This document shows, piece by piece, positions 15,448 to 40,800 of a stretch of DNA of 64,000 bases. The translations under genes and the position numbers were made by a program. The first letter of the stretch is position 1. Each line of letters opens with the position of its first letter. The DNA comes from Nitrospirales bacterium. Lineage in GTDB: Bacteria > Nitrospirota > Nitrospiria > Nitrospirales > UBA8639. The notes under the pieces were generated by a model. It made no database searches, was not told where the DNA came from, and saw only the letters and a list, made by a program, of their open reading frames with translations. Location of the stretch: contig CBDCWC010000002.1 in the NCBI GenBank assembly GCA_965223295.1, forward strand, positions 480,001-544,000, given 5' to 3'.

Positions 15448-15535
15448 CCTACCTGTAATACGTTTGAGGCAGCTCAGCCGCAGTTTCTAGCACGACCGAA
15501 CTGCCTTAAACAAGTTCACATAAACGAATTGCTCG

Positions 15536-17515
15536 TTAAGGCTGTTTTATCGATAGACCATCCATTCTTTCGGCTCCGTAGCTGTAGAGGGAGCCATCCC
15601 AATTTAGATCAAACGTGCAACTGGTATTGGTGCCCAGGGAGCTTGGCGTGCAGCGCAGTACATCTGCGCTATCACCAGAAGTACTGTTGACACTAAATAT
15701 CCCACGGGTCGTCAGATAGATTTCGCCACTATCTGCGATCCAAACTCCAAAGATATCTTCGTCATTTGATTGGTTCAGACCAACATCTGACCCATCAAAG
15801 TAGAGAGCCCAGGAACCGCTCGTTGTTGTACCAAGTGAAGTAGGTGTGAAGACTAAGAGATCTTCATCCCGCCAACGAGTTCCGATCACGTTAACATTCC
15901 CAGCTGTGCTTAGCACAATACGTCCATCAGCGAGGACATGTAATGAGTCAATCTTTTCACCGTTAGTTGCCAGGCCGACGTCAGAGCCGTCAAAATATAA
16001 TTCAAAGATCCCGCTCGTGGTTGTTCCGAGACTCGAGGGAATAAAGCGGACAATGTCGGAGTTGTCGACAGTGCCTACATTGGGAATCGTGGTATCTCCA
16101 ATGAAGGACAATAGTAGCGTTCCATCATCCAACACGTGAAAGGCGTTGATATCACGGGCTCCAGCACCAGAAAGACCCACATCGGAGCCGTCAAAGTATA
16201 GGCTCCACGTATTGGTCGTTCGATTAAAGGCCAGGATGTCCTCATCAGCGAAGGAAACGCCACCTACTGAACCGCCGGATGTAGAACTCAGATAGAGGAT
16301 AGTTTCAGCTGATGGTGTGTCAGTTACTGTCCAGGTGAAATCAGTACTCGCATTGCTAACTTGTCCATCATCCACGGTAACCGTCACGTTGTATTGTCCT
16401 ACAGTATCCAGCGTCCCTGTTATCGTCCCACTTGCGCTATTTATAGCTAGGTCTGAGGGTAAACCTGAGGCACTGTAAGTTAATTGATCGCCGTCGGGAT
16501 CGCTGGCATTAATGGCTAGATTAATCACGTCACCAAGAAGATGATCTTGGTTGCCAGGGTTAGAAATAGTTGGCGGATTATTCCCACCTGGTCCACTAGG
16601 TAAATTTACTGTCAGGCGGATACCTGTGGAATGCCATAATTCTCCCCCTTCAGAAGCTAAATGAGGTAAATAGCTTCGATACCAGAGTATATTGTCTTGA
16701 CCATTGATATTTTCCCCATTGTTTCCTAGCACACTGGTAATTGCGCCGTCAGTCCAGCCACCTGCTTCACTGCTGTGATATAGTCGTCCGTAGACCTGAC
16801 TATTAGCATACTCGGTTTCGGGGATTACCGTCCCTGGGACATTCCAGGTATTGGTATCGAACGCGACATCAACTGTCATTCCATTGACCGTATCTCTCAC
16901 TTGCCATTGATGATTATTCGCTTCGGTTGCAGCTGCATCGAATTCATTGGAATAGATCTCCCAAGCGGTACCGGTATGTCGTCTGATTTGATCAGACGCT
17001 GCTCCAGCCAGATCGAAGTCCAGCCGCCAAAACGGATAATGGAGGTGGTCTGTTTGGCACTGTAAGCCTTTGGCAAAGATATGGGCGTCAATTTGACCAC
17101 TCCCGCTCAAATACCAGACTTGATATAAGATATAGGCCCCAATTTGATCCTGAAACCCTATTTCTCGCCAAGTTTCACCATTTTGGGTAAATGTCCGATT
17201 CACCACTGAACTATTTCCTGCCCATGATACAGGCAGCCCCGACCCTCCGAGACGATCTGCGTAAGGGCCACAAGCATTATTTTCATAAAATACTGTCATG
17301 ACTGGCATGCTGGCTCGTTCCAACACCTTCACGCCTTGGTAGCTGACGTTACTCAGTGACATGCCATCAAAACGACTTGAGACCTCATAGTCTAAGGTCC
17401 ATCCCTCCCAATTAACACTCCCAGCACTTTGTGCTTGAACGATTATAGGAGTCCATAGCATCAATGCCGATGCCACAATCAAGTATGTGAACATGAATAT
17501 TTTTTTTGCCTTCAT
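15536..17515 (-). CDS. Secreted copper amine oxidase-like catalytic domain + Ig (He_PIG) + C-terminal YFDGSDVGL-repeat module
   Basis: Signal peptide. CuAO-like motifs in canonical order: VNWEGW, GMSLSNVSY, ASMPVMTVFY...PYAD, IGAYILYQVW, HLHYPFWRLDFDL, LYHSSE, ENINGQDNILWY...PH. PPTISNPG Ig domain. Confidence 0.7.
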   Translation of the reverse strand: MKAKKIFMFTYLIVASALMLWTPIIVQAQSAGSVNWEGWTLDYEVSSRFDGMSLSNVSYQGVKVLERASMPVMTVFYENNACGPYADRLGGSGLPVSWAGNSSVVNRTFTQNGETWREIGFQDQIGAYILYQVWYLSGSGQIDAHIFAKGLQCQTDHLHYPFWRLDFDLAGAASDQIRRHTGTAWEIYSNEFDAAATEANNHQWQVRDTVNGMTVDVAFDTNTWNVPGTVIPETEYANSQVYGRLYHSSEAGGWTDGAITSVLGNNGENINGQDNILWYRSYLPHLASEGGELWHSTGIRLTVNLPSGPGGNNPPTISNPGNQDHLLGDVINLAINASDPDGDQLTYSASGLPSDLAINSASGTITGTLDTVGQYNVTVTVDDGQVSNASTDFTWTVTDTPSAETILYLSSTSGGSVGGVSFADEDILAFNRTTNTWSLYFDGSDVGLSGAGARDINAFHVLDDGTLLLSFIGDTTIPNVGTVDNSDIVRFIPSSLGTTTSGIFELYFDGSDVGLATNGEKIDSLHVLADGRIVLSTAGNVNVIGTRWRDEDLLVFTPTSLGTTTSGSWALYFDGSDVGLNQSNDEDIFGVWIADSGEIYLTTRGIFSVNSTSGDSADVLRCTPSSLGTNTSCTFDLNWDGSLYSYGAERMDGLSIKQP

Positions 17516-17519
17516 TTGA

Positions 17520-18443
17520 TTAATCCTCCCGACTTTCTACGACGACTTGATCGGTCAGATCAACCCAGGCGACGTATTCCGGTCCCACATCAACATTATG
17601 GTGAAAGGAGACATATCCTATTCGATGGTCGAAAAATGCTGAATTTCCGTCTGTTGGCAATGCTAAAATCGTGTTGCCTTCTAACTCCGCTACTTGGGTA
17701 TTACCTTCAGCAATCAGCGTACGGCGGGCTATCTGGATGGCCTCAGCCACTTCTGTTTCAGTAAGTGGGGGCTGATATATAACCGGAGGTATTGGATGAA
17801 TGGTGATGACTGAATCTTGGTCTACAAGAACTTCAACGGTCATATTATTTGTGTGGCTGAAAAAGGTATGGCGGACCTGGTGGTTATTTCTTTGTCCTTT
17901 CATTCCAAGTAATTCTTGGCCTACATGTACATAACGATCACCCAAAGCGATTTGGACATCTGGTGACTGCAGCGTTAGTGTGTTTGCATTTTCCTGAGCG
18001 ATAGCCGCACGACCCATTAGTGCAACCGACTGTTCTGTTCTAATATTTTCCATCGATTTTGGTTGTGGCGGAAAGACATTGCCTACAGCTTCAAAGCGTA
18101 CGTTCGGATCTGTGCTTTGATCATGATGATGGATGCGATCGTGACTGTGAGGATCATCGGGCAACACTGTTTCACGGACTCGCAATTCACTTAGGATGTT
18201 TTGCACCTCTTCATGTTGTCGCTGCCACATTTCTTTCTTACACTCATGTATGAGGTCACGGTCACGATGTTGAGTCAATCGGGAATCGGTAGAATGAATG
18301 CTGATTTGAGATAGTTGCTGAAAAAGTGCAGGATTTGTACATTCAGCTTGAACGGTCGTTGTCCACAACCCTAGCACTAGAGGGCCGAGGACTAGTCCGT
18401 TCAGGCTAAACCAATAGCCGCGTCGACGAGTCGCCGTTGTCAT
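17520..18443 (-). CDS. Secreted protein resembling copper amine oxidase N2/N3 domains
   Basis: Signal peptide, His-rich linker, EVLVD, YQPPLTETEVAEAIQI, VAWVDLTDQVVV. AAGGAG RBS before ATG 18443; ends 4 bp before the catalytic-domain gene. Confidence 0.6.
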   Translation of the reverse strand: MTTATRRRGYWFSLNGLVLGPLVLGLWTTTVQAECTNPALFQQLSQISIHSTDSRLTQHRDRDLIHECKKEMWQRQHEEVQNILSELRVRETVLPDDPHSHDRIHHHDQSTDPNVRFEAVGNVFPPQPKSMENIRTEQSVALMGRAAIAQENANTLTLQSPDVQIALGDRYVHVGQELLGMKGQRNNHQVRHTFFSHTNNMTVEVLVDQDSVITIHPIPPVIYQPPLTETEVAEAIQIARRTLIAEGNTQVAELEGNTILALPTDGNSAFFDHRIGYVSFHHNVDVGPEYVAWVDLTDQVVVESRED

Positions 18444-19189
18444 GGGGGACACTCCTTTGTTGGTATAGAGAGATTATAAGGGGGTAAGTGAAGCCATAAA
18501 GTACTACCAATAAAATAGATTCAAGGTCAAATTTAAAAAAAAGGTGAATAATAGCAATACCACAAAAGAAGGCAGGACATCTGTCAACTATGGAAATCTA
18601 AAAAAAAATCCTGGAAGGCCAATAAATTTTTGAATGGTTCTGTTGAAGTCATCGTGTGAATGAAAAGGTTACTGTTGGTCAAAATGTCCTTGGAAATATG
18701 CTTCTGGTTGGGAGACCCTAATTGTTTTTGTTTAAAAGGAGGCGTTGACATATCAGCGCTCTTTTTCTGAGATTAGTTAGATTGTTTCGAGGAAAGAAAT
18801 TCTCTGTGTCATACTCTCATAGACTGCGAACGCTTGAAGCCTGTTGTTTTGAGATTATTCAAGGAAAAAATTTTGGCTCTTTAGGCAGTACGCTAAAATT
18901 TGTTTTGATTTTTTTCATTGGGTATCTCTCCGTGTTTTTCGATTGAAGAGTCAACCTCTACAGTACGTTAATAAATCAAGGAAAAATATTTTGACTGTTT
19001 CTCAAGAGTTCACGGTAGAGATGTGACGTGCGTTTTTTTGTTTAATCCTACTACTTATAAGAAATTGTTCTTTTTTAAAATTTCCTGACATGAACCAAGC
19101 AAGGAATGTGGCAAAGTTGCCGAAAAGGAAGGAGACTTAACGAGATTAGTCATAAATTAGAAATTGGAGAAAATCTGGTGCACTGCAAA

Positions 19190-19654
19190 ATGACAGTCGT
19201 TCGAGTTGTTCTTTTTTGCTTTCTTTTCGTTGGTCTTTTTTCGAGTCCTCTTCTCTTTGCCAGTCCGACTTTTTTGAACCGACAGGCGTATCCTCTCCCG
19301 CTTGGCTTAACGGAAATTGGGAAGTTCCATAAGAATGATCTCAAGACATTTGAAATTTGGACACAATGGAGCAATCCCTCACACGAGAAAATCGTGGTCA
19401 ACGTCACCTTTACATTTTTTGACAAAGATTCTTCCGACTCGCAGTTAGGAGAAGATGGGAAGGATGATATCCTAATGACAGTGACGGAGACACTGATCAT
19501 TCCTGAGCAGACAAGCAACTGGGGAAAATATTCCCAACTCACGGCGATCGGGCACAAACTCAATCAAGGCTTTGATCACCCTGCGGAAGGTGCAGGTTTA
19601 GAATTGTACCTTGAAGCACAAGTCATTTCGGTTAAATATATTTCTCAGGAATGA
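19190..19654 (+). CDS. Hypothetical secreted protein
   Basis: Signal-peptide-like N-terminus. Start uncertain (GTG 19178 or ATG 19190). Confidence 0.55.
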   Translation: MTVVRVVLFCFLFVGLFSSPLLFASPTFLNRQAYPLPLGLTEIGKFHKNDLKTFEIWTQWSNPSHEKIVVNVTFTFFDKDSSDSQLGEDGKDDILMTVTETLIIPEQTSNWGKYSQLTAIGHKLNQGFDHPAEGAGLELYLEAQVISVKYISQE

Positions 19655-19713
19655 CATGCATTTTCTTTTGCCACTTTGCCAACGTGAATAATTTGGTAAC
19701 AGACTGGTTAACA

Positions 19714-21486
19714 CTATCCGCGCGATAGGCCATCGATATTCTCCGTCCCATAGCCGTTGGCCGAGCCATCCCAATTTAGATCGAACGTGCAACTGGTATT
19801 GGTGCCCAGGGAACTAGGCGTGCAGCGCAGCACATCTGCGCCATCACCAGAAGTACTGTTGACACTAAATATCCCACGGGTCGTCAGATAGATTTCGCCA
19901 CTATCAGCGATCCACACGCCAAAGATGTCTTCGTCATTTGATTGGTTCAGACCAACATCTGATCCATCAAAGTAGAGAGCCCAGGAACCACTGGTCGTAG
20001 CACCAAGCGAAGTAGGTGTGAAGACCAGGAGATCCTCATCCCGCCAGGTTGTACCCGTTACGTCTGAGTTGCCAATTGTGCTGATGACAAGCCGCCCGTC
20101 GTTTAAGAGATGCAGGGCATCAATATCTTCTCCGTTGGTTGTTAAGCCGACATCCGAGCCGTCAAAATACAACTCGAAGCGACCACTTGTACTTGTTCCC
20201 AGGCTTGTGGGGATAAACCGAACGATGTCCGAGTCGTCCACACTGCCTACGTCAGGAATTGTTGTTTCCCCGATAAAAGAGAGTAAAATCGTGCCATCAT
20301 TCAAGACGTGAAAGGCATTGACATCGCGGGCTCTATTACCAGATAAACCGACATCGGAGCCGTCAAAGTATCGGCTCCACGTATTGGTCGTTCGATTAAA
20401 GGCCATGATGTCCTCATCAGCGAAGGATATGCCACCAACCGAACCACCTGAGGTGGAACTGACGTACATCACATCTTGAGTTGGTGGAGCTGGATCGACG
20501 GTCCAGCTAAAATTAACAGTCGTTTGCCCGCCACGCCCGTCATTTACGATGATCGTTACGGAACTCTGGCCGTCCGTGGTCACCGTCCCGGTGATTGCAC
20601 CACTCGCCCCATTGATCGTTAATCCAGGCGGCAGGCCTGTTGTCGTATAAGTCAGCGAATCACCATCAGGATCACTGGCAATAATAGCAAGCGTCACCGT
20701 GTCCCCCACGGTATTGGTTTGGTTCCCGGGGTTGGTTACGATCGGAGGTTGATTCACCGGGGTGGAATTCACCGTCCAGGTAAAGGTCACACTATCTTGT
20801 CCCCCATTACTATCATCTACACCAACTGTGGGAGTAAATGTTCCTGCACTCGTCACGATTCCAGTGATGGCTCCGGTACTGCCATTGATACTTAACCCAG
20901 CCGGCAATCCTGTCGCATTGTACGTCAGTGTGTCTCCATCTAAATCAGACGCACTGAGGCTCAGTGCAATGCTCTCGCCTTCTGTAGAAGTTTGAGGTCC
21001 TGGATTTGTCAGAACTGGTGAAGAATTAACAATGGGTGGAGCCGGCTCGTGTTGATCAATTTGACCAAGGAAGGCCACTAACTGATTGAGTTGCGTAGTC
21101 GTGAACGAGGCGCCATCATGCGCGTTGATCGCATCAGCCAGCGAAGCGGCTGACCCATCGTGCAGATAAGGTGCTGTACTCCATAAGCCACGAAGTGTCG
21201 GAGTATCTAGACCCGTTAAAGGACCACCTAAACGACTACCACTACTCGTCTTAATCGTGCCAATGTTGTGGAGATTATTCGATGCGCTGTCTGTATAAGC
21301 TTGTCCTCTGTGACAACTGGCACATTGACTTGTTTCAAAAATCGAACGACCAGCTGCCCCATCGGGGGTCAATTCGCCATTGGTCGCGCGATTTGGACTG
21401 CTACCAAAACTCATTAAAGACTTGACATAGGCTGCCAAGGCATCGAGATCGGCACTCAAGCCCGCTTTGGCCGCGCCCAACGGGGG
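19714..21486 (-). CDS. C-terminal segment of the giant oxidase-peroxidase fusion: second haem (CASCH), 2 Ig domains, YFDGSDVGL-repeat module
   Basis: LDALAAYV, QCASCH, TPTLRGLWSTAPYLHDGS. Continues ORF 21401-21874 after a frameshift at the G5 run 21482-21486. Confidence 0.8.
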   Translation of the reverse strand, partial: PPLGAAKAGLSADLDALAAYVKSLMSFGSSPNRATNGELTPDGAAGRSIFETSQCASCHRGQAYTDSASNNLHNIGTIKTSSGSRLGGPLTGLDTPTLRGLWSTAPYLHDGSAASLADAINAHDGASFTTTQLNQLVAFLGQIDQHEPAPPIVNSSPVLTNPGPQTSTEGESIALSLSASDLDGDTLTYNATGLPAGLSINGSTGAITGIVTSAGTFTPTVGVDDSNGGQDSVTFTWTVNSTPVNQPPIVTNPGNQTNTVGDTVTLAIIASDPDGDSLTYTTTGLPPGLTINGASGAITGTVTTDGQSSVTIIVNDGRGGQTTVNFSWTVDPAPPTQDVMYVSSTSGGSVGGISFADEDIMAFNRTTNTWSRYFDGSDVGLSGNRARDVNAFHVLNDGTILLSFIGETTIPDVGSVDDSDIVRFIPTSLGTSTSGRFELYFDGSDVGLTTNGEDIDALHLLNDGRLVISTIGNSDVTGTTWRDEDLLVFTPTSLGATTSGSWALYFDGSDVGLNQSNDEDIFGVWIADSGEIYLTTRGIFSVNSTSGDGADVLRCTPSSLGTNTSCTFDLNWDGSANGYGTENIDGLSRG

Positions 21487-21870
21487 CACTCGTGGCATTG
21501 AAATCGGCATCATCCATTAATCCAGTACCGCCAGCTAGACTACGAATCTGTCCTTCGAAATCCTGCACTTCGTCAAAGTTGCTGGTCCAATGGAGACGAC
21601 CATGCTCTGACCCGCCTCGCCCATTTAGACTAATGGTATTTCGTAATCCTTCACCAAAGCCTGTCAAATCCCAAACACGCCCATCATGATCACCGTCGTT
21701 ATGACATGAGGCACAACTTATGTAAGCATCACGGGCTAGGCGATTGTCTCGAGCGTCGTAAAACAGTTGTTTCCCGTTCAGGACTTGGCTCGACAATGCT
21801 TCATTTGCGACTGTCTCATAATTTGCAATGGCATTGACCGTGAATGATCCGACATTTATCAACTGAGAGA
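21482..21870 (-). CDS. Middle segment of the giant fusion: first haem domain of a di-haem cytochrome c peroxidase-like module
   Basis: GKQLFYDA, ISCASCHNDG, GLRNTISL, LHW. Confidence 0.8.
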
Positions 21871-24800
21871 TCATAGATGCCTATGCTACGGTCCATAAAA
21901 TTATGAACATAAAGTGTTAAGCCATCAGGTGAAACCGCAAGACCCTGAGGTGCACGCCCCACATCAAAACGGAAAAGTTCAGTTTGCTGATAGGTGTCAA
22001 CGACAGCAATTTCACGACTCGTTTCTAGGGCAACGAAATAGTAGTTGCCATACAATCCAAAGGTACCTGCACTGCCCAGCCCAGCATTATCGTGATCCAA
22101 GCGCGCTGAAAAGTCTTCGCTGTCGTTGGATAAATTTATACGGGATGAAATCGCTCTGACAGTATGCTCAAAGTTTAGATTGTTTCCATCACGTAATGTT
22201 CCGCGCAAAATATTATCTTGTTTCGAGGGCACCCATGCAGTAGTGCCATCTGGTGAAATAACTGGAGCTCCTAGATAATTTGGTACCCCACGAGCACCTG
22301 CTTCGAAATCAGCCCCATTATTTACAGCTAGAACGATCGTGTTACCAACGCTCATGGTTCCAGTGTTCACGACAACGATTTCGCCACCCACTCCAACAAT
22401 TTGTGGACTGGCGGTTTGCTCGCCGGGTAATGGTGGTGTAATGAATCGAGAGACGTAGACCTTACTGCCGTCAGAGGTGATAGCGATATGGCGAGGATTG
22501 GGGCCAACATTCACACTCCCTATTTGGCTAGCGTTGCTCGGATTGAGCTGTAGCAACATACCGGTGGCTTGAAGTGCCAGGTATCCATTGTTCCCAGACG
22601 GATCAAAGAGTAGGCCAAAGGGTTGCGAGCCAGATGGGAAATTAACTGTGTTGACAACACTTAATGAGATTTGATCGATGATACTCAGCGTGGCCGAGTC
22701 TTGATTGGTAACCCATATACGACCATCTGGTGCCGTAGCTAAGCTCCGTGGTTCATTCCCAACGCCAATTTCTGCAACTTTAGTGTTGGTTATCGTATCA
22801 AAGACAGTAACTGTATTATTGTCAGGATTAACTGCCCATATTCGATCATTTCCACTTCGTGATTCGTACATCACACTCATAGAGCTGGATGGACGATTTG
22901 CTGTGAAGGGACGATGAATTGCCTGGTAGAACTGTCGAGAGACTTCTTGCGCACTATTGTCCGTCACCGTCACGGTGACAATGTAACGGCCAGGGTTTTG
23001 AAATGTATGCGAGATTGCTGCCGAGGTGCTGTATGCTGTTTCGGGAGTATTATCGCCGAAGAGCCACTTATACTGTAGTGCTCCGTTTCCGCCACTCGCG
23101 GTCGCTGTGAAGGTGATGGATTGATCAGTTGGTTGAGGGGAAGAAGTGAAGGGAGAAATGGTTATTGTTGGAGCAGGACTAATGATCCAGGTAAATGTAG
23201 TACTGTCTTGACCACCGTTGCCGTCAACCACGTTAACGGTTGTATTGAATGTCCCAGAGCTAGAAATCGTGCCACTTATCACGCCAGTAGTGTTATTGAT
23301 ACTCAAGCCCGAGGGTAGCCCACTGGAACCGTAAGAGAGTATGTCTCCATCCGAATCACTTGCACTGATGGGTAAACTTACGATGTCCCCCTCAATATTT
23401 GTTTGACTGCCAGGATTTGTTACAACGGGCGGTTGGTTCACTGGGCCAGGATTTGTCACAGTCCACGTAAACACGACACTGACATTCTCCATGCCATCAC
23501 TTATATTGAGTGTGACTGTATAGGTTCCGGCGCTATCACTGGCTAAAGTTCCCGCAATTACTCCAGTATTGCTATTGATATTCAAGCCCGGAGGTAGTCC
23601 AGTTGCGCTGTAGCTGAGGGTGTCTCCATCTGGATCGCTTGCGCTGATGGGTAGGCTTACGACGTCCCCTGCAATGTTGGTTTGATTTCCTGGATTGGTT
23701 ATGACGGGAGCTTGATTGCCGGGAGGTGAGACAAACAGTATGGTTTTTTCATTTGCGTTGTTGGCAAGAGTCCCTTGCGCGACAGGTGATCCCCAGTTGA
23801 TACCATCCGTACTAATATAAAATCGATAGGCCGACACGGTCCCATTGCCACCGCCTGGTCTGGGCAGATACTTAAATCCACCTAGATCATAACTTGCACC
23901 CAAGTTCACGACGATCTCATGAGGATGAGCTGGATCATTGTCGTCCCCAGCATTGGCAAACCATTCGGTATGCCAGAAGGTTTGGGTGTTTCCATCAATA
24001 GCATTGACGGCTCGTCCGTCTTCTCCCACTGTCTCTTGACTATCGAATGAGACCACCGACCAACCTACTTGGTTTAATGGATTGCCATTGGTGTCCAACA
24101 CATTGAGTTCAGCCATGCTTGTCCATGGTTTTCCATTAATTTCAGAATCAGCAACAAAGCGAACATATTGATGAGCGCCTGGCGTGGGAGGTTCGCTCAC
24201 GACTTGGATGACTTTGGCGATAGAAGGAACGTTTTGCTCATTGAGTGCGAAAAGCATCCAGTAACCCGGTGTCAATACGTTGCGGTTACTCTCCAATGTC
24301 AGTTGATAGTTTCCATTGTCGCTACTAAAAGGCACGTTGAGGAATCGTACATCTGTGTTGTGAGAATGAGTCGTTCCCGACATTTTGATCATGCTGAATT
24401 TCTGAATGTTGGGGGTGGCGACTACGTCGACTGTGGCTCCAAATGTTGAAATGTCTGTGGCACTAGTGATCGAGGGACGAGTAGCTAACGTGCCGTCGGC
24501 ACTAAAAAGATAAGATGGCGAGTAGATTTGGTGGTCAGGATGATCGGCATTACAGCCACACAATCCCCCGCCGCCAGAAAAGACACGGCCGTCAGGCATG
24601 AGCAGTGCCACGGAATGGTAATTGCGGGGCACTGTGTGGTCTGCCACTTCCCGCCACAGTTGAGTCTGTGGATTCCAGATTTCAGGGGTCAGAATTGTAC
24701 CCTGATCGCTAAACCATACATCCTGGGATGTGCCACCGACGACCAAGACTTCCCCTGTTGGCAACACCACAGCATTGGAATGGGCGCGCGGTTGTATCAG

Positions 24801-25793
24801 ATTGTTTACCGGCGTCACCTGAGGCGTTGTCCCATTCATGTCCACAATGGTGGCCCTATTTTTGGCACTGACTCCTCCAAGCGTCAAAACCTTGCCTTTG
24901 TCAAACATGATCATCGTGCCTGCCTGATTATTTGCATCCCAGTCGGTAATCCCCGCGGCAGTTTCCTGAATTGAGCCATTACCCTGTGGAGTGATGTAAT
25001 GCATTTGGGGAGTGGGGCCAAGATGTAGAATGTCGCCATTGGGAGCTACCGTGAGCATGGGGAACCATTCCGGGCGTCCATAATCTGTGTAGTCAAGAAT
25101 AGGACCTTGCAGATCAATGCCAGTGAGCCATTGCCACCCTGAGCCTTCCGTCCACAACTCTGGGTAACGACTTCCGGGACTGCCTAAAGCCATAAAGACC
25201 TGGCCATCTGGGAGTTGTAGGGACCCGTTGTACCAGCGACCAATATTGGCGTCGTCGATACGTCGCCAATTGTTGGTGCGATAATCAAAAAGACTGGTAC
25301 GTTCTCTCGTTCCATCACCTCCGACGACAAAGATTTGACCATTTTCCCGCATGGTAGGAATTGCACAGAACATTGAATGTTGGGCATAGTTGTCCTCGGT
25401 AATCTGTCCTGTTACCGGATCCCATATACCTGTATATGTGTTAGAACCACCATTAAAGGTAGTTCGGTTGTTCCCGCCCCAGGCAATAATTCGGCCATCC
25501 GGTAGATTGGCGGCGGACGCAAATACGAAGGGCCAAGTTGTTACTGGACCCCACTGACCGACCTGGTCGAGAGGCTCATTGGCTGCTAAGGCTTCTCCTG
25601 CGAGGGGCTCATTGGTTGATAAGGATTGTTGTTGAGGTGTAACAAATGCGGGTTCATTGCGTTGGCGAGCGAGTTCTGCTGCTGCATAGTCCTCATCAAC
25701 GTGTGACCATGCATGCCCGATTAAGCCTATTTCTAATGTGAATAAAGTCAAAAATACAAAATTCCATTTCCGCCAAAAATACTGAGATTTCAT
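21865..25793 (-). CDS. N-terminal segment of the giant fusion: galactose-oxidase-like copper radical oxidase (AA5) + F5/8 discoidin + 2 Ig + PKD + YVTN beta-propeller
   Basis: Signal peptide after GAAGGA RBS (ATG 25793). HSMFC, GRWY, RNYHSVALLMPDGRVFSGGGGLCG, TTHS, PGYWMLF; discoidin AIDGNTQTFWHT; PKD YKWLFGD; propeller VNPDNNTV and VGRAPQGLA. Confidence 0.85.
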
Positions 25794-26455
25794 GATATGT
25801 TCCTTCGGGTCTAGATACGGCCAGAGTGGTAGTCCCTGAATAACTAGTGATGGGTGGATAATTAACAAAGTCGTAGAAGAAAAAACTATGACTCATAAGA
25901 GGTACTGTGGTCTGATGAATCTTCGCGAGGTTGCACCGTGGAGATTCTCAGAGGCAGGGTTGGTCGGAAAGCTGTTGTCTGCCATTTGAAATATTTGAGG
26001 ACCTGTACAGGCCTTGGACGCCATGAACTATCAGCCAACCTTCACAGGCTGAAAGAGCCATCTGCTTAGATCAACGAAATACCATGGGATATGAAGAGAT
26101 AATTTGGGATAATTCATCCACCTCATTACAATGGCTAATATAGAGAGGCTGCTGATGACAAAGAACGCACCAAAGAGAATAGCCGGGCAGCCACGGATAG
26201 TGGGCTTGCCTATTAGCTTGGCCCCTAAGCAGGAAAACGTTTGATATTTTGGTATAGAGCGGTTTCCACATCGTCCATGTCTTTTGTCGTCATGTGATTT
26301 GTAAAGGATGATCCCTTGTCTTTCTTGTCCGTGCCTCTTCTCAGTCTATTGACTCTTGTTGCCAAGAGTGAGAGTGATAGTTCATAGATCTTTCTTTGGT
26401 ATACTGGGCGCTATAATAGAACACATTCACTAGCGCAGAAGGAGACGTGAGGCAG

Positions 26456-27814
26456 ATGAAACAGATTATGGTTGTCGGGGCAGGGGCGGTTGGTGGGTAT
26501 TTCGGAGCGCATTTAGCACGAAAGCATTCGAATGTGTCTTTTTTATTGCGGCCCAAAACACAACAGGCCGTGGCGATCAACGGCCTGACAATTCGAAGTG
26601 CGATTGGAGAGAATTTTACCGTGCGTCCTCCTTCGGCATCTCATCCACAAGACTTGCCCCAGTCTGATCTAATCATTCTAGGTGTGAAGGCATATGATCT
26701 GGATGAAGTCATGGATCAACTTGAGCCAATCTTGAGACCCGATACGACGATTTTAACATTACAAAACGGTGTCACGATTGAAGATAGGTTGAAAATGAGG
26801 TTTGGGCGGGAGCGTGTGGTGGGCGGAGTCGCATTTATTTATTCCAAGATTGCCGAGCCTGGTGTAATCGAGCATTTCAAGAAAGGAATGGTCACAATTG
26901 GCGAGTTAATGGGGTTGGAGACACCGCGTCTTCGACAAATACAAGAGTTCTTTAAGGAAGCGGGGATCCCATGCTTTTTGACTGATGATATTCGCAAAGC
27001 TAAGTGGGAGAAAATGTGTTGGAATTGTGTCTTTAATCCTCTGACCGTGGTTCTCAATGATCATGTTGCGAAAGCTTTGGACGAGCCCGCCTTGCAACCG
27101 GTCATTACCACGATTGTTCAAGAAGTCGCCGCCATCGCGATGGCCACCCAGCGAGTGCCGTTGGACGGAGATATGCCTGAGAAAGTTGTGAGATGGTCGC
27201 AAGAGCTTCGAGATATTCATACTTCGATGTACGATGATTGGAAGGCTGGACGTCAGACTGAAATTGATGAGTTAAACGGGTATGTTGTGAAAGAGGGAAA
27301 AGAATTAGGTGTGCCAACGCCCATGAATGAGATGTTGACAGCGCTTGTTAAGGGGATGACAGTACAAAAGTGTGTGGAGGAGCCAGTTGTAAGTGTAGAG
27401 GGCGATGTTCAACATGCCCTGCAATTTTCTCGAGCACATTTACGGAATCTGCCTGAGAAATATCAAGTTTCTGATATTGGCGCCGTGATGCCAAATATGC
27501 GGGGTGCGGGTGTAAAAATTCAAGCACTCTTGGAAGCCGTGACTCTTCAAGTAGGAGTTGATCATGTGACTTTTTATTCCGAAGATCAAAATTATTCAGC
27601 CTGTCTCACGGTAGATCAGGCTCATCAGTTTGGTATTTTGCTGTATGAACAAAATGGAGAAGGTTTCCCCGATGAGCAGGGAGGTCCGTTTCGATTTGTT
27701 GCTCCGGGATTGGGCGATCTGTGTGCAAATGTGAAGCAGGTTCGGGAAATAGTTTTTTCGATAGGGTCTGTTCAAGATACACGTCCTCTCAAAGCGTGTA
27801 CAGAAGAGCGGTAG
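26456..27814 (+). CDS. panE: 2-dehydropantoate 2-reductase with a C-terminal molybdopterin-oxidoreductase-like domain
   Basis: VVGAGAVG, VKAYD, LQNG, KWEK, SMYDD, TEIDELNG; extra ~140 aa with GGPFRFV and NVKQV. Confidence 0.85.
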   Translation: MKQIMVVGAGAVGGYFGAHLARKHSNVSFLLRPKTQQAVAINGLTIRSAIGENFTVRPPSASHPQDLPQSDLIILGVKAYDLDEVMDQLEPILRPDTTILTLQNGVTIEDRLKMRFGRERVVGGVAFIYSKIAEPGVIEHFKKGMVTIGELMGLETPRLRQIQEFFKEAGIPCFLTDDIRKAKWEKMCWNCVFNPLTVVLNDHVAKALDEPALQPVITTIVQEVAAIAMATQRVPLDGDMPEKVVRWSQELRDIHTSMYDDWKAGRQTEIDELNGYVVKEGKELGVPTPMNEMLTALVKGMTVQKCVEEPVVSVEGDVQHALQFSRAHLRNLPEKYQVSDIGAVMPNMRGAGVKIQALLEAVTLQVGVDHVTFYSEDQNYSACLTVDQAHQFGILLYEQNGEGFPDEQGGPFRFVAPGLGDLCANVKQVREIVFSIGSVQDTRPLKACTEER

Positions 27815-28200
27815 GAAGGGCCATCCCAGAAGTTGGCTCTTCATAAAGTTTCTGCAAAAATTTCCTTCAACTGTATAAGGTTTTTGTAAAGATTTTCATG
27901 CATCGTAAGTTTTTCAGACCGTCTTTATCACAGTCATTGAATTGGCCAACTAAGTTTCTCAACATCATCAGTCAAGCCATTCTGTAATGCCAGTAAGGGT
28001 ACAGCCTCATTTCCCTTAAACGGTTGTTTGAAGATCATGGCTTGAGTCCTTGAGTAATTGCAGGCCATAGCTTGCACGTTCTTCATTTCGCCTTGTTTGA
28101 CCATTTTCCGCCTTTTCCCTACACTCCGCTGTCATAAAAACCGCATTGTATTTTTTGATGCCTGCTTTCATTTATCTATCCTCTTTTGCAGGAGGAAGTC

Positions 28201-29493
28201 ATGGATAAACTCGAAATTTTTCCCTGGGCCAAAAACTTTGAAACCGGCATTGATGTTATTGATGAACAGCATAAGAAATTAGTGACTATTTTGAATACTT
28301 TAGCAGGGCATCTGGCGAACTGTTCTTTGCCGGACGAGATGAATACGGTCTTCGATGAGTTAGCGGCCTATGCCAACTATCATTTCAAGTCGGAAGAGGA
28401 AATTTGGAGTGCGCATTTTAAGGATGATCAGTGGTACATGAATCATCTTAAAACACATGAAACCTTCCTTAGTAATGTGGGGAATTTAAAAAAAGAAGAA
28501 GGTGAGAAATCCCTGGATAAGGTCATCCAGGATATTGTGACTTTTCTTTCGAAGTGGCTGGCTTATCATATTTTAGATACCGACAAACGCATGGCCAAAA
28601 CGATTCAGGCGATGGAATCAGGGAAGTCTCTGGAAGAAGCTAAAGCCATTGCCAATGAAGAGATGAGTGGTTCGATGAGAGTGCTGATCGATACCGTACT
28701 CAACATGTATGAGGGGATCTCCGTTCGTACTGTCGAGCTGATGCGGGAAAAGGTTCGCCGGAGACAAGCTGAACAGGCATTAGCTGCAAGCGAAGAACGC
28801 TGGAACTTTATTCTGAAATACATCTTGAGTGACAATGAAGACAATGTCTGGGATTGGGATATTGAAAACAGTATTCAATATCTTTCTGGAGTCGATCTCC
28901 CTGTATTTTATGTGGTGGATGATAGCCAGCCATCCTTCAAGAAAGATTCGACGATTCATCCGGCTGATTTTGAGAAGGTCAAAGAGGACTTGCAGGCGCA
29001 TCTTGATGGTAAAACAGATTTCTTCATTAACAAGCATCGGGTCTTACGTCATGGGGGACAGTGGTCCTGGGTGTTATCTCGAGGGAAAGTGGTCAGTCGT
29101 GATGAGCGCGGTAAGGCTTTACGGATGGTGGGCACGCAAACGGATATTACTGAGCGGGAACTGGCAGCGCTCATCTATAAAAATAGCAGTCAGGCGATGT
29201 TTGTAACTGATCTTGAAAACAAGATTATCGGGGTGAATACGGCATTTTCAAAGCTGACGGGTTATGCCGCTGATGAAATCATTGGGAAATCTTCGGCTTA
29301 TTTTTTATCGGATAGGCATGATAAGGAATTTTTCCAGCAAATAAAGGAAAGCCTGGCCTTAACTGGGCGTTGGGAAGGTGAAATATGGAATACACGTAAA
29401 AACGGAGAAGAGTTTCCCGCGTTGCAGACGATTAATGCCGTTGTCGATTCAGAAGGTGTGCTGAATTATTCTGTCGGGCTCTTATATGACTGA
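28201..29493 (+). CDS. Bacteriohemerythrin + 2 PAS sensor (N-terminal part of a hybrid histidine kinase)
   Basis: IDEQH, HFKSEE, HLKTH, WLAYHILDTD; PAS motifs IHPAD, TDITER, RKNGE. GGAGG RBS. Confidence 0.88.
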   Translation: MDKLEIFPWAKNFETGIDVIDEQHKKLVTILNTLAGHLANCSLPDEMNTVFDELAAYANYHFKSEEEIWSAHFKDDQWYMNHLKTHETFLSNVGNLKKEEGEKSLDKVIQDIVTFLSKWLAYHILDTDKRMAKTIQAMESGKSLEEAKAIANEEMSGSMRVLIDTVLNMYEGISVRTVELMREKVRRRQAEQALAASEERWNFILKYILSDNEDNVWDWDIENSIQYLSGVDLPVFYVVDDSQPSFKKDSTIHPADFEKVKEDLQAHLDGKTDFFINKHRVLRHGGQWSWVLSRGKVVSRDERGKALRMVGTQTDITERELAALIYKNSSQAMFVTDLENKIIGVNTAFSKLTGYAADEIIGKSSAYFLSDRHDKEFFQQIKESLALTGRWEGEIWNTRKNGEEFPALQTINAVVDSEGVLNYSVGLLYD

Positions 29494-30706
29494 CATCAAA
29501 GCTGCAGTTGCTGACAGAGAACGGTTATTAGAAGATCTTCAGCAAGCACAAAAAATGGAATCATTGGGTCAGCTAACCAGTGGCATTGCCCATGATTTCA
29601 ATAATCTCTTAGGAATCATGACGGGCTATTCTGGGCTCGTGCTGGCAGGTTGCGAAAGTTTGGGCGAAGAGCGACTGATAGGGTATATGCGCCAAATGTG
29701 TGCCGTCAACAAATGTGCGGCGAATTTGGTCTCACAGATGCTTGCCTTCAGTCGAAATGATGAAATCGATGATGTTCCCATGCTATTTGCCCCTTTGCTA
29801 GAAAATGACATTGAGATTATACGTGCAACCCTGCCGATGACGATTGATATTCAATTCGAGAGCGAGCCGAATCTTCCAAGTGTCATGATGAGTCCTACGC
29901 AACTGCACCAAATTCTGATGAATCTGTCTCTCAATGCTCGTGATGCCATGGAGGGCCATGGCTGTCTACGGATTTCGTTGGGCTGGGCTCGTGGGTTAGA
30001 TGTGGTGTCGTCGGTTTCGAAGAAACGGGTTCAAGGAGACTGGATTGAACTGAGCGTGAGTGATACGGGTCCAGGTATTCACCCAGAGATCGTTCAGAAG
30101 ATCTTTAATCCGTATTACACCACGAAGGATGTCGGTAAAGGGACTGGACTAGGCCTGTCGGCTATTTACGGCATTGTAGAAAAACATGGTGGGCATATCT
30201 TATTGGAGAGTGAAGAGGGAAAAGGAAGTATATTTCGCATACTTTTTGCGCCGTTGCCAAGGGATCAACAGAAGCAAGTAGAAGAGCCTGTCGAAGCGCC
30301 TTCTGCAAAGTTTATCCGAGGGGATGGTTCCGAAATTTTAGTTGTGGATGATGAACCTGGATTTGCCACATTTATCGAGGCACTCCTCACGACACACGGA
30401 TATCAGGCTATGCCATGTACCGATTGGAATCAAGCGTTAGAGTTGTTTGCTCAAAATCCTTCACGATTCTCTTTAGTGGTTGCTGACCAGCATATACCTG
30501 GAATAACCGGTATCCAGTTGATTGGAAAAATTAGAGAGTTGCGACCAGAAATTCCAGCTATTGTGTGTTCGGCGTATAGAGAGAAAGGGGATGAAGGAGA
30601 AATGATAAATAAGGATATCGCTTTTTTCGAAAAACCTCTTGATGATACTCGATTTCTGAAGGCTGTGGGCCAGTTATTGGAAGCCTGTGGTGGAGTTGAA
30701 AAATAA
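29486..30706 (+). CDS. Histidine kinase + receiver (C-terminal part of a hybrid kinase)
   Basis: AQKMESLG, IAHDFNNLL, NARDAM, GKGTGLGL, receiver VVDDE. Overlaps the upstream ORF by 8 nt. Confidence 0.9.
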   Translation: MTDIKAAVADRERLLEDLQQAQKMESLGQLTSGIAHDFNNLLGIMTGYSGLVLAGCESLGEERLIGYMRQMCAVNKCAANLVSQMLAFSRNDEIDDVPMLFAPLLENDIEIIRATLPMTIDIQFESEPNLPSVMMSPTQLHQILMNLSLNARDAMEGHGCLRISLGWARGLDVVSSVSKKRVQGDWIELSVSDTGPGIHPEIVQKIFNPYYTTKDVGKGTGLGLSAIYGIVEKHGGHILLESEEGKGSIFRILFAPLPRDQQKQVEEPVEAPSAKFIRGDGSEILVVDDEPGFATFIEALLTTHGYQAMPCTDWNQALELFAQNPSRFSLVVADQHIPGITGIQLIGKIRELRPEIPAIVCSAYREKGDEGEMINKDIAFFEKPLDDTRFLKAVGQLLEACGGVEK

Positions 30707-37861: not shown

Positions 37862-40800
37862 ATGTCCAACGTTCTATCCCACCCTTTCATTCAAAAGACG
37901 CTAGTTGGATTTGGATTGTTGTTTAGTCTCGTCCTTTTTTCTGCTCCCGTTCAATCTGCCGAAACTCTGCAATGGGATGAGAACACGGAGCCAGATTTAG
38001 CCGGATACATTGTTTATCAAGGTACAACAGCGGGATCCTATGAGACTCCTATAGATGTGGGGAACGTCACAAGCTACACGGTATCGGACCTCGAACCTGA
38101 TACGACGTATTATTTTGCGGTCACGGCTCATGACACGGGGGGGAACGAAAGTGGGCCTTCCAATGAAGTGAGCATACATGTTGCGGCGCCGCCGGACGAC
38201 ACGTCGCCTACAGTGATGCTCACTTCGCCTACTTCAGGTTCGACTCTATCGGGAACTGTCATGTTGCAGGCCGAGGCGAGTGATGATACAGGGGTGGCGG
38301 GTGTACAGTTCAAGATGAACGGGACGAACTGGGGAGCTGAGGACACGACGGCCCCCTATGTTATGGCGTGGGATACGACGACTGTAACGCCAGGGGCCTA
38401 TACGTTGACAGCCGTGGCGCGAGATGCGGCAGGCAACACGGCTTCGTCGATCTCGGTGCAGGTGACCGTGACGGAGACGGAGGGAGGCTCGCGCGTGACG
38501 GCTGGGTTAGTAGCTTTGTATGAGTTTACTGAGGGGGCCGGGGCCACGGTGGCGGATACTTCAGGGATGGGCACGCCGCTAGATTTAACCATTGCAGATG
38601 TAAACGATGTGACGTGGCGACCAGGTGTGGGTGCCCTGCAGGTGAACGCGGAGACCATCGTCAGTTCAGACGGGCCTGCAACTAAGGTGCACACGGCGCT
38701 GATGGCCAGTAACGCGGTCACAGTAGAGGCCTGGGTGAATCCGGCCAATCTGACCCAGAACGGCCCGGCCCGCATTGTGAGCCTCTCGGCCTCACCCTAT
38801 TTGCGAAATTTAACGCTTGGACAGGGGGTGTTTAGTAGTGCAAGCGATCGACTTGAAGTACGCTTGCGGACAAGCAGCACGAGCTTGAATGGAACGCCGG
38901 CGGTTCCGACCGCCGAGGGCACACTGGCTGATAGATTACAACATATGGTCTACACGCGGGATGCCGCGGGCAACGTGAAGATTTACCTGGATAACACCAT
39001 CTTAGCCACGAGCACAGTCGGAGGGGACTTCAGCACGTGGGATACCACGATGCCGCTGGTACTGGCGAATGAGGTGAATGGGGAACGGGCATGGTTGGGC
39101 GAGTATCACTTAGTTGCGATTTACGACATGGCCCTGACGACGGCCCAAGTTACCCAGAACTTCACGGCGGGACCTAGGGGTAAGGGAGGAGCAACAAACC
39201 AAGCGCCGACGGTAACAGCCGGACTGGATCAGGCGGTCACGTTACCAACGGCAGTGACGTTAGATGGGACGGTGACAGATGATGGGTTGCCAACCCCACC
39301 GATGGTCAGCACGCTCTGGAGTGTGACAAGTGGGCCGGGGCCGGTGACGTTTGGGGCGGCGACGTCGGTGGATACGACGGCAAGCTTCACGGTGGCAGGA
39401 GTGTATGTACTGCGGCTGACAGCGGATGATGGTGAGTTGACCGCCTTTGATGAGGTCATGGTGCATATGGCGGCCCCACCAGATGAGACGCCGCCAACAG
39501 TGGCGCTGACTGCGCCGACAGCCGGAGCGACTCTCACAGGGACGGTCACGGTACGGGCCGACGCAAGTGATAATCGAGGGGTTGTTGGTGTGCAGTTCCA
39601 GATGAATGGGACAAATTGGGGAACCGAAGATGCGACGACGCCCTACAGCCGGGTGTGGGATACGTCCACTGCGACGCCAGGAGCCTATACAATCACAGCG
39701 GTGGCCCGAGATGCGGCGGGTAATGCAAGTACTTCAGTGCCAGTGACGGTGCACATTGCGGCCCCACCGGATGAGATGCCGCCAACGGTGGTGCTGACTG
39801 CGCCGACAGCCGGAGCAACTCTCACAGGAACGGTTACGCTGCAAGCAGCGGCGAATGATGATCAAGGAGTCGCTGGCGTGCAATTCCAAATGAATGGGAC
39901 GAATTGGGGCGCTGAGGACACGACGGCACCCTATAGCCGGGTGTGGGATACGTCCACTGCGACGCCAGGGGCCTACACAGTAACAGCTGTGGCTCGAGAT
40001 GTAGCGGGCAATACGGGTACCTCGGCCCCGGTGACGGTGCATATTGCAGCTCCGCCTCCACCGGCACAACTACCAACCCTCACCAGTCCCGAGGTGGGAT
40101 CAATTTTATCAGGGTCGACAATAAAGCTTTCTTGGAATCCGAATACGACCTCAGTCAGTGAGTGGTGGCTGTACGTCGGCAGCAAACAAGGTAGTAAGGA
40201 CATTTTAAATACTGGTTCCATGGCGAGTAGTACGCTCTCTCGGACGGTGTCGAACTTGCCAACGAATGGCCAGCCGGTGTGGGTGCGCTTGTGGTGGAAG
40301 TCGGGAGGAGGCTGGCAGTCAGAGGACTATGCCTATACTGCTGCTAGCGTCACTAACAGCACCCCAGCGATCAGTAGTCCTGCTGCGCAATCGACGTTCG
40401 CAGATAGTACAGTCACATTCAAGTGGACTCCCCACACGACCGCGGTGAGCGAGTGGTGGCTGTACGTCGGCAGCAAACAAGGTAGTAAGGACATCTTAAA
40501 TACTGGTTCCATGGCGAGTAGTACACTCTCTCGGACGGTGTCGAACTTGCCAACGAATGGCCAGCCGGTGTGGGTGCGCTTGTGGTGGAAGTCGGGAGGA
40601 GGCTGGCAGTCAGAGGACTATGCCTATACTGCTGCTAGCGTCACTAACAGCACCCCAGCGATCAGTAGTCCTGCTGCGCAATCGACGTTCGCAGATAGTA
40701 CAGTCACATTCAAGTGGACTCCCCACACGACCACGGTGAGCGAGTGGTGGCTGTACGTCGGCAGCAAAAAAAGTAGCAAGGATATCTTTAACAGTGGTTC

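Follow-up and report, generated by a model that had tools for sequence, protein, structure and literature searches.

A 64,000-nt stretch of the genome of a Nitrospirales bacterium (contig CBDCWC010000002.1, positions 480,001 to 544,000; hereafter the window) harbors two neighboring units for secreted copper oxidases. All genes of interest were located on the minus strand, between positions 15536 and 25868. Unit A is a single large gene for a copper radical oxidase with a built-in di-haem domain. Unit B consists of a gene for a copper amine oxidase (CuAO)-like enzyme and a gene for a partner protein directly upstream of it. The genes are arranged as follows:

15536-17515, minus strand: CuAO-like gene (659 residues, signal peptide)
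17520-18452, minus strand: gene for the exported partner protein of the CuAO-like enzyme (310 residues, of which the C-terminal part of about 190 is conserved; 4 nt upstream of the CuAO-like gene)
21816-25868, 21401-21874 and 19714-21513, minus strand: large gene as drawn in the window, three overlapping open reading frames (ORFs)
19714-25793, minus strand: secreted copper radical oxidase/di-haem megaprotein, the large gene read as one gene (from the ORFs, the colinearity with P0069 and the indel corrections)

An intact homologue of 2,111 residues (P0069, labeled as a Nitrospira sp. protein by its source) was colinear with the large gene across all three frames in tblastn, with frame changes at about 21864 and 21482. 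We compared the contigs of four public short-read runs (X1-X4, from two studies) with the window over positions 15500-25900. At 21482, where the plus strand has five consecutive G, one base fewer was present in all four runs, and behind 21864, where the coding strand has a short TC repeat, all four runs had an extra GA, in both cases at full depth. Because 4/4 runs corrected both frameshifts, the breaks between the three ORFs are assembly errors. A reading of the large gene as a pseudogene was rejected, since neither frameshift occurred in the short-read contigs of any run. The homopolymers at 18600 and 19081 were each one base shorter in runs X1 and X2, so that the window differed from the short-read contigs by about four small indels per 10.4 kb, three of them in homopolymers. 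After both corrections the gene was a single open frame of 2,051 codons from a TTG at 25868. The first ATG, at 25793 and 25 codons inside this frame, is the likely start codon. We concluded that unit A encodes a single uninterrupted protein of about 2,030-2,050 residues.

Over positions 19100-25300, runs X3 and X4 also contained additional contigs with 46-77 differences per 500-950 bases beside the identical ones. The same material therefore held a related strain or species with the large gene.

The following features were assigned to unit A:

24189-25586, minus strand: galactose-oxidase-type catalytic propeller and E-set domain (Pfam PF09118, PF13964, PF07250; PDB matches)
25356-25373, minus strand: Cys of the copper site (MFCAIP; alignment)
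25221-25238, minus strand: Tyr of the copper site (RWYNGS; alignment)
24606-24623, minus strand: Tyr-His of the copper site (NYHSVA; alignment)
24351-24371, minus strand: His of the copper site (THSHNTD; alignment)
23730-24026, minus strand: F5/8 type C domain (Pfam; in the binding/spacer part, 22941-24026)
23184-23717, minus strand: two He_PIG domains (Pfam; binding/spacer part)
22941-23171, minus strand: PKD domain (Pfam; binding/spacer part)
21834-22916, minus strand: YncE/YVTN-type beta-propeller before the di-haem domain (NCBIfam, weak Pfam)
21040-21870, minus strand: di-haem domain of the CcP/MauG superfamily (CCP_MauG, RoxA-like_Cyt-c), with both indels inside (2 bases missing at 21864, 1 extra at 21482)
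21701-21715, minus strand: first CxxCH (CASCH; sequence motif)
21310-21324, minus strand: second CxxCH (CASCH; sequence motif)
21154-21171, minus strand: PYLHDG motif, present once (sequence motif)
20479-21036, minus strand: two He_PIG domains behind the di-haem domain (Pfam)
19717-20478, minus strand: C-terminal four-bladed propeller module, copy 2

In Pfam, the first ORF showed a galactose oxidase (GO)-like E-set, Kelch, Glyoxal_oxid_N, F5/8 type C, two He_PIG, PKD and a YncE-like propeller. The second ORF showed CCP_MauG with the first CxxCH, and the third ORF the second CxxCH, RoxA-like_Cyt-c and two He_PIG. When residues 90-570 were compared with the PDB by phmmer, the oxidase matched 9g8h (7.1e-91), the Fusarium enzyme 1gof (5e-72) and GlxA (4unm, 4.4e-29). 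Kelch propeller and E-set were matched over query residues 8-468 of 481, and PF09118 scored 62.9 bits. The copper-site and cross-link residues were identical to those of 9g8h in the alignment (hsMFC, gRwY, PRnYHS and tTHshNTD), and we take them to be the cross-link Cys and Tyr, the axial Tyr and the two His ligands of the AA5 family. The best NCBIfam match of the oxidase domain was the GlxA model, with 146.9 bits versus a cut-off of 800 bits. The propeller before the di-haem domain reached 50.5 bits for the NCBIfam model beta_rpt_yvtn (cut-off 27.85) and gave weak matches to hydrazine synthase beta and YncE in NCBIfam and to YNCE and Cytochrom_D1 in Pfam.

The di-haem domain scored slightly above the Pfam cut-offs of two families (PF03150, 26.1 bits, cut-off 25.6; PF21419, 30.2 bits, cut-off 26.7). 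For the PDB search, the corresponding P0069 domain was used (72% identity with that of the window over 155 aligned residues). The best match was the gamma subunit of hydrazine synthase (5c2v_C, 7.7e-13), followed by the cytochrome c peroxidases (CcPs) of Shewanella and Nitrosomonas (3o5c, 1.8e-12; 1iqc, 6e-12), an MbnH-type enzyme (2.1e-9) and MauG (2.1e-7). NCBIfam gave partial matches to hydrazine_gamma (41.9 versus 625 bits), MbnH (34.7 versus 362.85 bits), MauG (27.4 versus 443.85 bits) and the SAM_quin_mod MauG-like family. As every NCBIfam score was far under its cut-off, the domain is placed, by sequence comparison, in the bCcP/MauG superfamily but in no named functional subfamily. Taken together, these matches bore out what the preliminary description, made from the letters of the window, had said of the large gene: an oxidase of the galactose-oxidase type (AA5) joined in one frame to a CcP/MauG-like domain with two haem-binding motifs.

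Behind the PYxHDG motif, at 21118-21132, the window has a His (AINAH; AVTAHAG in P0069) at the place of a Met in the CcP 3o5c (AVNTMAD). This may mean that the second haem has another axial ligand.

A CcP-like domain was also present on 116 of the 120 best GO homologues listed (phmmer, E ≤ 1e-5). The four others were P0068, which is the truncated frame of the window itself, P0070, P0080 and P0084. By source name, the listed homologues belonged to Nitrospira, Caldilineaceae, Blastocatellia, Acidobacteria and Pseudomonadota. Because 116 of 120 carry the CcP-like domain, we concluded that the oxidase/di-haem fusion is a conserved family and not an accident of one genome.

Unit B comprises a compact catalytic domain followed by binding domains:

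16601-17428, minus strand: compact CuAO-like catalytic domain, about residues 30-305 (profile, hhalign, AF2/Foldseek)
17255-17257, minus strand: Asp87
17132-17134, minus strand: Tyr128
17045-17047, minus strand: His157
17039-17041, minus strand: His159
16661-16663, minus strand: His285
16322-16576, minus strand: He_PIG immunoglobulin (Ig) domain of the CuAO-like protein (Pfam)
15539-16300, minus strand: C-terminal four-bladed propeller module, copy 1

A search of 3,163 candidates with residues 1-310 of the CuAO-like protein yielded 67 proteins at E ≤ 1e-3. Nearly all of them shared an N-terminal domain of about 300 residues, behind which differing C-terminal binding domains followed, including P-domain, FN3, He_PIG, CARDB, CBM6, ricin-type and laminin-G domains. 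A family profile (A1) built from 34 members matched the catalytic domain of the Arthrobacter CuAO AGAO with 6.9e-8; 'iGnYdiy' was aligned to 'IGNYDYG', 'HiHypyWRlDfDldg' to 'HQHIFSARLDMAIDG', and the last His to 'GLTHF'. Against E. coli TynA, hhalign gave a probability of 84.5% over 254 columns and placed Asp87 on the Asp of 'LDSGDYG'. Asp87, Tyr128, His157, His159 and His285 were invariant in 34/34 sequences; we take the three His to be the copper ligands, the Asp to be the base and the Tyr to be the cofactor precursor. The AlphaFold2 (AF2) model of the domain had a predicted local distance difference test score (pLDDT) of 89.8 and a predicted template modeling score (pTM) of 0.85. In Foldseek, the top 50 PDB ranks were all CuAOs (best E 9.3e-13, TM(query) 0.65). 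The domain is about 280 residues long versus about 400 in canonical CuAOs, and the protein is not a full-length single chain with N2/N3 domains.

To see how the CuAO-like gene is accompanied elsewhere, we used a scan with one genome per species, which returned at least 500 relatives of the catalytic domain, and kept the best 80 loci. By record titles these came from Nitrospirota, Gammaproteobacteria, Actinomycetota, Rhodothermales, Acidobacteriota, Chloroflexota, Binatia, Eisenbacteria and Saprospiraceae. A homologue of the partner was encoded directly upstream in 68 of the 71 loci with at least 700 nt of upstream DNA, frequently with a 4-nt overlap, and the pair spans at least eight phylum-level groups by record titles. 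At two loci (L015 and L055), partner and catalytic domain formed one frame. Among 335 proteins searched, the partner profile also matched the N-terminal halves of P0013 and P0028 (E 1e-49) and, weakly, the distant proteins P0062, P0063, P0064 and P0066 of 550 residues (1e-6 to 2e-5).

A complex was predicted from residues 28-310 of the CuAO-like protein and residues 115-310 of the partner. It scored 0.86 versus 0.17 for the best control; the mark applied is reached by 58 of 80 solved complexes and by 2 of 110 mismatched pairs. The runs had at least 75% of their contacts in common, and the pLDDT of the partner was at least 82. The predicted contacts of the partner included residues 82-88, 124-129 and 149-154 in the catalytic domain, in the surroundings of Cys153, the Tyr and the catalytic Asp. 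This model supports binding of the partner, which is predicted to cap the active-site face of the CuAO-like domain.

The partner itself had no sequence match in Pfam, NCBIfam or the PDB (phmmer against the PDB at chance level, E 0.67-0.82), and the best E of its family profile against the PDB was 0.37. When 31 partner members were scanned with Pfam, no match had an E-value under 0.015, no family was hit by two or more members, and N2/N3 domains were hit in 0/31. A search of a protein atlas with the partner returned unnamed clusters only (best score 0.89). With the N-terminus of TynA, hhalign reached a probability of 4.45% over 20 columns, in which the last strand of the partner lay on the end of TynA domain 3. 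By these sequence comparisons, descent of the partner from the N-terminal domains of CuAOs could not be shown. Thus, of the split CuAO that had been proposed from the window, the CuAO-like enzyme and the conserved two-gene unit were confirmed, and the origin of the second chain from CuAO N-terminal domains was not demonstrated.

A His-rich stretch (HSHDRIHHHD, 18120-18131, about residues 100-111) was located in the non-conserved N-terminal part of the partner and could be a lineage-specific metal-binding tail. We also noted a divergent subgroup of CuAO pairs with about 33% identity in Nitrospiraceae-type loci (L065-L092), which was common in Nitrospira-type genomes. Its catalytic proteins have 300-340 residues and no C-terminal domains, and a few small neighbors without family were common to 13-16 loci.

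Both proteins end in Ig domains of the He_PIG family and nearly the same module, in agreement with the preliminary description. The last 254 residues were 85% identical (250 of the 254 residues compared), and the 3.78-Mb genome contained exactly two copies, on these two neighboring proteins. At the DNA level the identity of the copies was a mosaic of 63-97%, with 63-78% in parts and a patch of 180 nt at 93-97%. An exhaustive search found the module in 3,320 representative protein clusters, 1,447 of these at E ≤ 1e-30, with one to five copies per protein and mostly at the C-terminus. In 28 shorter carriers it occurred beside Ig, cadherin-like, PKD, kelch, CBM6/35 and laminin-G domains; among the other proteins fetched, two more CuAO-like proteins (P0002, P0003) and one oxidase/RoxA-like giant (P0097) carried it. 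No Pfam family matched at E ≤ 0.01 (best DUF4984, E 0.036), and none of the hemopexin family at E ≤ 10. The AF2 model of the module (pLDDT 92.9, pTM 0.91) consisted of four repeated blades. Foldseek listed weak matches to six-bladed kelch propellers first (TM 0.34-0.43). In a full structural scan, hemopexin-like four-bladed propellers ranked first, and MMP-2, MMP-9 and vitronectin came next. Judged by the predicted structure, the module is a four-bladed hemopexin-like propeller by fold, not by sequence family.

Based on these data, we consider it likely that the locus holds two separate, widespread secreted copper-oxidase units that are neighbors in this genome and have each gained a C-terminal targeting domain of the same kind; unit A would be a self-contained oxidase-peroxidase and unit B a two-subunit amine oxidase. 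Several observations on the enzymes and on the link between them weigh against this reading. In unit A, a stretch of four residues ('swsg') of the solved galactose oxidase was a gap in the alignment. It includes a Trp that we take to be the stacking residue over the Cys-Tyr cofactor, which some AA5 members presumably replace. Bacterial CcPs require an electron donor, and none was encoded nearby; the scan of ten neighboring genes found no small cytochrome c and no copper-chaperone gene beside the fusion. For the catalytic domain of unit B, the Pfam match to Cu_amine_oxid (PF01179) was marginal (28.0 bits versus a cut-off of 27) and covered profile positions 17-64 of 407 only (48 positions), and the single sequence had no PDB match at E ≤ 1 in phmmer. 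Ala and Ile flank the cofactor Tyr (Ala-Tyr-Ile-Leu) at the place of the canonical Asn-Tyr-Asp/Glu-Tyr motif. In the family of 34, the residue before the Tyr was Asn in 14 and the residue after it Asp in 20, while an Ile after the Tyr occurred in the window copy only. Because of the non-canonical neighbors of Tyr128, formation of the quinone cofactor could differ in this copy.

The link between the units was not found elsewhere. A GO domain or the module was present within 10 kb of the CuAO-like relatives in 0/80 loci; a single locus (L033) showed weak propeller and CcP matches. Among 40 relatives, 14 had the CuAO-like gene, and two congeners had a true GO orthologue (G016, 95%; G015, 73%). 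These two lack the CuAO-like gene, so that none of the 40 had both. In the genome with the nearest CuAO pair (G041, 87% identical domain), neither a GO (E ≤ 1e-20) nor the module (E ≤ 1e-10) was detected. The nearest relative, L013, had no synteny with the window beyond the CuAO pair. When 3,231 ORFs from the 80 loci were clustered, no cluster beyond the pair occurred in more than 16 loci, nine neighbor-cluster examples that were scanned were housekeeping genes or had no family, and no aldehyde dehydrogenase, transporter or other shared neighbor was found around the CuAO pairs. Both units are probably not one transcript, because they are separated by a 1.26-kb spacer with an ORF on the opposite strand:

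18453-19713, no strand: spacer between both oxidase units (1.26 kb; homopolymer assembly errors at 18600 and 19081)
19106-19654, plus strand: ORF inside the spacer (182 residues; no Pfam or NCBIfam family)

We concluded that the conserved units are the fusion protein alone and the two-gene CuAO pair alone. As there was no co-occurrence or common neighborhood in the other genomes searched, the link between them is local and consists of adjacency, the same strand and a module confined to both in the genome.

The C-terminal domains of these proteins are quickly swapped in this lineage, because sister orthologues keep catalytic domains at 87-95% identity but differ wholly behind them. The CuAO orthologue P0004 (L013, 87% identical) ends in laminin-G-type domains, and the GO orthologue P0070 (G016:C3:2084591-2086033, 89-95% identical) ends in a P-domain and lacks the propeller, the haems and the module.

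For the function of the two units, we propose the following model. The oxidase of unit A would convert a primary alcohol to an aldehyde and H2O2, and because of the discoidin, Ig and PKD domains its substrate is probably located on a glycan. The propeller and di-haem unit on the same chain would use this H2O2, either to re-oxidize the oxidase to its active radical state, in the manner of peroxidases with fungal oxidases and of DtpA with GlxA, or to oxidize a further substrate held by the propeller. In unit B, the minimal CuAO domain of 280 residues would work with the separately exported subunit of 310 residues that covers its active site. It most likely converts a primary amine to an aldehyde, NH3 and H2O2, and the appended binding domains suggest an amine that is bound to a polymer, plausibly peptidyl-lysine. 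The shared propeller would be a binding module that probably docks both enzymes on one extracellular ligand. Since it would bring both to the same ligand, both enzymes would modify the matrix of the cell. Substrates, channeling of peroxide, co-targeting and the role in the matrix are parts that we infer.

How far the two enzymes belong together can be judged from the same survey. The preliminary description had linked them in a dedicated cascade, in which the CuAO-like enzyme turns amines into aldehydes, the radical oxidase turns these into acids, the di-haem domain captures the peroxide and the ammonia would serve a nitrifier. The adjacent, co-oriented genes, the module that occurs in the genome only on these two proteins and the closest named relatives of the host, Nitrospirales and Nitrospira, would fit such a pathway. 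The neighborhood survey had been named beforehand as its test, and with 0/80 loci, 0/40 relatives, G041 without GO and module, and sister species that carry one enzyme or the other, it spoke against the cascade. So did the missing aldehyde dehydrogenase, transporter or shared neighbor around the CuAO pairs and the position of the GO domain, whose closest matches are galactose and alcohol oxidases instead of known aldehyde-specific enzymes. A search of the genome for ammonia monooxygenase genes (amoA/pmoA families PF02461 and TIGR03080) gave no match, but 14 control genomes were equally silent, so that this search was uninformative. We regard the cascade as highly improbable; a dedicated cascade or pathway is unsupported, and a shared target of both enzymes is plausible. 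The opposite view, that chance neighbors share a module by rapid C-terminal domain shuffling among surface proteins, draws on the other C-termini of the close orthologues (laminin-G-type in P0004, P-domain in P0070 of G016), the lack of synteny with L013 beyond the pair and the thousands of unrelated architectures with the module. Both genomic copies (2/2) on these two neighbors and DNA patches of 93-97% identity, which fit recent exchange and selection for one binding specificity, make this view unlikely.

Two further explanations concern single components. A MauG-like maturase that builds or repairs, by means of peroxide, either the Cys-Tyr in the oxidase domain on its own chain or the quinone in the neighboring CuAO-like enzyme would agree with the partial NCBIfam matches to MauG, MbnH and the SAM_quin_mod MauG-like family and with MauG among the PDB matches. 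In the enzymes studied, though, both cofactors self-process with Cu and O2, the best PDB matches of the di-haem domain were hydrazine synthase gamma and true CcPs and not MauG, and the CuAO pairs of the 80 loci have no such domain nearby. We consider a maturase very unlikely, even with the precedent that, according to the accessible part of the source, DtpA is needed for maturation of GlxA (PMC4736821). The partner of the CuAO-like enzyme might be no structural subunit but an exported chaperone, a pro-domain-like inhibitor or a copper-delivery factor, which would keep the active site covered up to maturation. Its predicted position over the face with Tyr128 and Asp87, the HSHDRIHHHD stretch of the window copy and the lack of detectable N2/N3 homology (Pfam, hhalign) could be explained in this way. 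In the single-chain fusions, however, the partner precedes the catalytic domain, an order that corresponds to canonical CuAOs; the His-rich stretch belongs to the non-conserved part; and the sole hhalign match sets the C-terminal strand of the partner on the final part of TynA domain 3, which the catalytic domain directly follows. A masking factor is therefore the less likely reading, though one to be reckoned with, and we prefer a two-subunit amine oxidase. Going beyond two separate units, it is conceivable, by analogy and at rather long odds, that both enzymes form a co-targeted matrix-modifying set. In it, the propeller would dock both on one extracellular polymer of the Nitrospirales aggregate, the radical oxidase would turn glycan alcohols and the two-subunit amine oxidase peptidyl or polymer amines into aldehydes, and the di-haem unit would use the peroxide of both for upkeep of the oxidase and for cross-links.

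Parts of both units have counterparts in known systems. Fungal AA5_2 enzymes (1gof, 9g8h/9g43) and unit A have a homologous propeller and E-set, the copper-site residues and a discoidin-type domain in common. This last domain precedes the catalytic domain in the fungal enzymes, whereas it follows it in unit A. In Colletotrichum, an AA5_2 oxidase (AlcOx) reportedly forms a tandem with a separate haem-peroxidase partner (PerOx). The fungal tandem resembles the proposed unit A in pairing an H2O2-making oxidase with an activating haem peroxidase, but in unit A the peroxidase-type part is a di-haem c-type domain of the bacterial kind, which follows a YncE-like propeller within the oxidase chain itself. 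In Streptomyces lividans, both GlxA and the secreted haem peroxidase DtpA are tied to extracellular glycan deposition and aggregation, as stated in the accessible part of the source (PMC4736821). Here, too, a bacterial radical copper oxidase works with a haem peroxidase, although GlxA is a weaker PDB match of unit A than fungal GO, and the score of the GlxA model in NCBIfam stayed far below the cut-off. Unlike the di-haem domain of unit A, which is part of the oxidase chain, DtpA belongs to the DyP type and is a protein of its own. Hydrazine synthase beta and gamma (5c2v) also combine a propeller with a following di-haem CcP-like unit. The gamma subunit was the best PDB match, and partial NCBIfam matches were obtained to the beta, gamma and beta-gamma fusion models; unit A differs by scores far under the cut-offs (as for hydrazine_gamma above), the lack of an alpha subunit and the fusion to a copper oxidase.

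Canonical CuAOs (AGAO 3x3x/1av4, TynA) and unit B have the catalytic fold (Foldseek E about 1e-12), the Tyr, the HxH, the third His and the Asp in common. Unit B differs by its shorter domain, by an exported, sequence-unrelated partner that replaces the N-terminal domains, by the appended C-terminal binding domains and by the non-canonical Tyr flanks of the window copy. Compared with hemopexin-like propellers (MMP-12 3ba0, plant albumin 3s18, hemopexin 1hxn, MMP-2/-9, vitronectin), the module is about 60 residues longer and is no member of their sequence family. A literature search, with subscription journals and supplements outside its scope, found no paper on the oxidase/di-haem fusion and none on a minimal or split CuAO. 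A review of copper radical oxidases had no occurrence of 'cytochrome' or 'fused'.

Other observations concern the spacer, the assembly and the surroundings of the locus. The N-terminal stretch of the ORF at 19106-19654 is hydrophobic. Related strains in runs X3 and X4 had length differences of 3 nt and 86 nt in it, and for this reason it is perhaps non-coding. One low-depth contig of X3 joined 19682 back to 15551; a rearrangement was rejected, and we read this joint as an assembly-graph join through the repeated module. Given four indels in 10.4 kb, other split or oddly fused ORFs of the window may also be artefacts; possible cases are a PAS sensor (28186-29493) followed by a kinase/receiver frame (29486-30706), and ApbA joined to a molybdopterin-oxidoreductase fragment (26447-27814). 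Promoter and terminator scans gave numbers at the level of shuffled sequence (14 versus 17.0 and 11 versus 8.6). The GC content was 0.589 at 38001-40000 versus about 0.46 elsewhere in the window.

Copper radical oxidases have to be oxidized before they can work, which peroxidases typically do, and a natural peroxidase partner exists; they are valued biocatalysts to which peroxidase or another oxidant has to be added for the start, as far as the accessible part of the source describes them (PMC12951238). How activation and removal of peroxide are built in could be learned from a natural oxidase-peroxidase on a single chain, and the fusion is widespread in bacteria. New in this analysis are the prediction that the partner caps the catalytic domain, the fused forms, the hemopexin-like assignment and the size of the module family, and the negative result on co-occurrence. 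CuAOs have so far been studied as single chains. For these enzymes, a conserved cap subunit that can detach from a minimal catalytic domain would represent a novel architecture, and a two-gene CuAO would be a small model for cofactor biogenesis. The propeller of 254 residues represents a large domain family without a Pfam model, and its presence on both proteins hints, in a way that can be tested, at a common extracellular target of the two enzymes. If the co-targeted matrix-modifying set were true, it would be a bacterial counterpart of matrix cross-linking of the lysyl-oxidase/peroxidasin type, built from three unstudied protein families.

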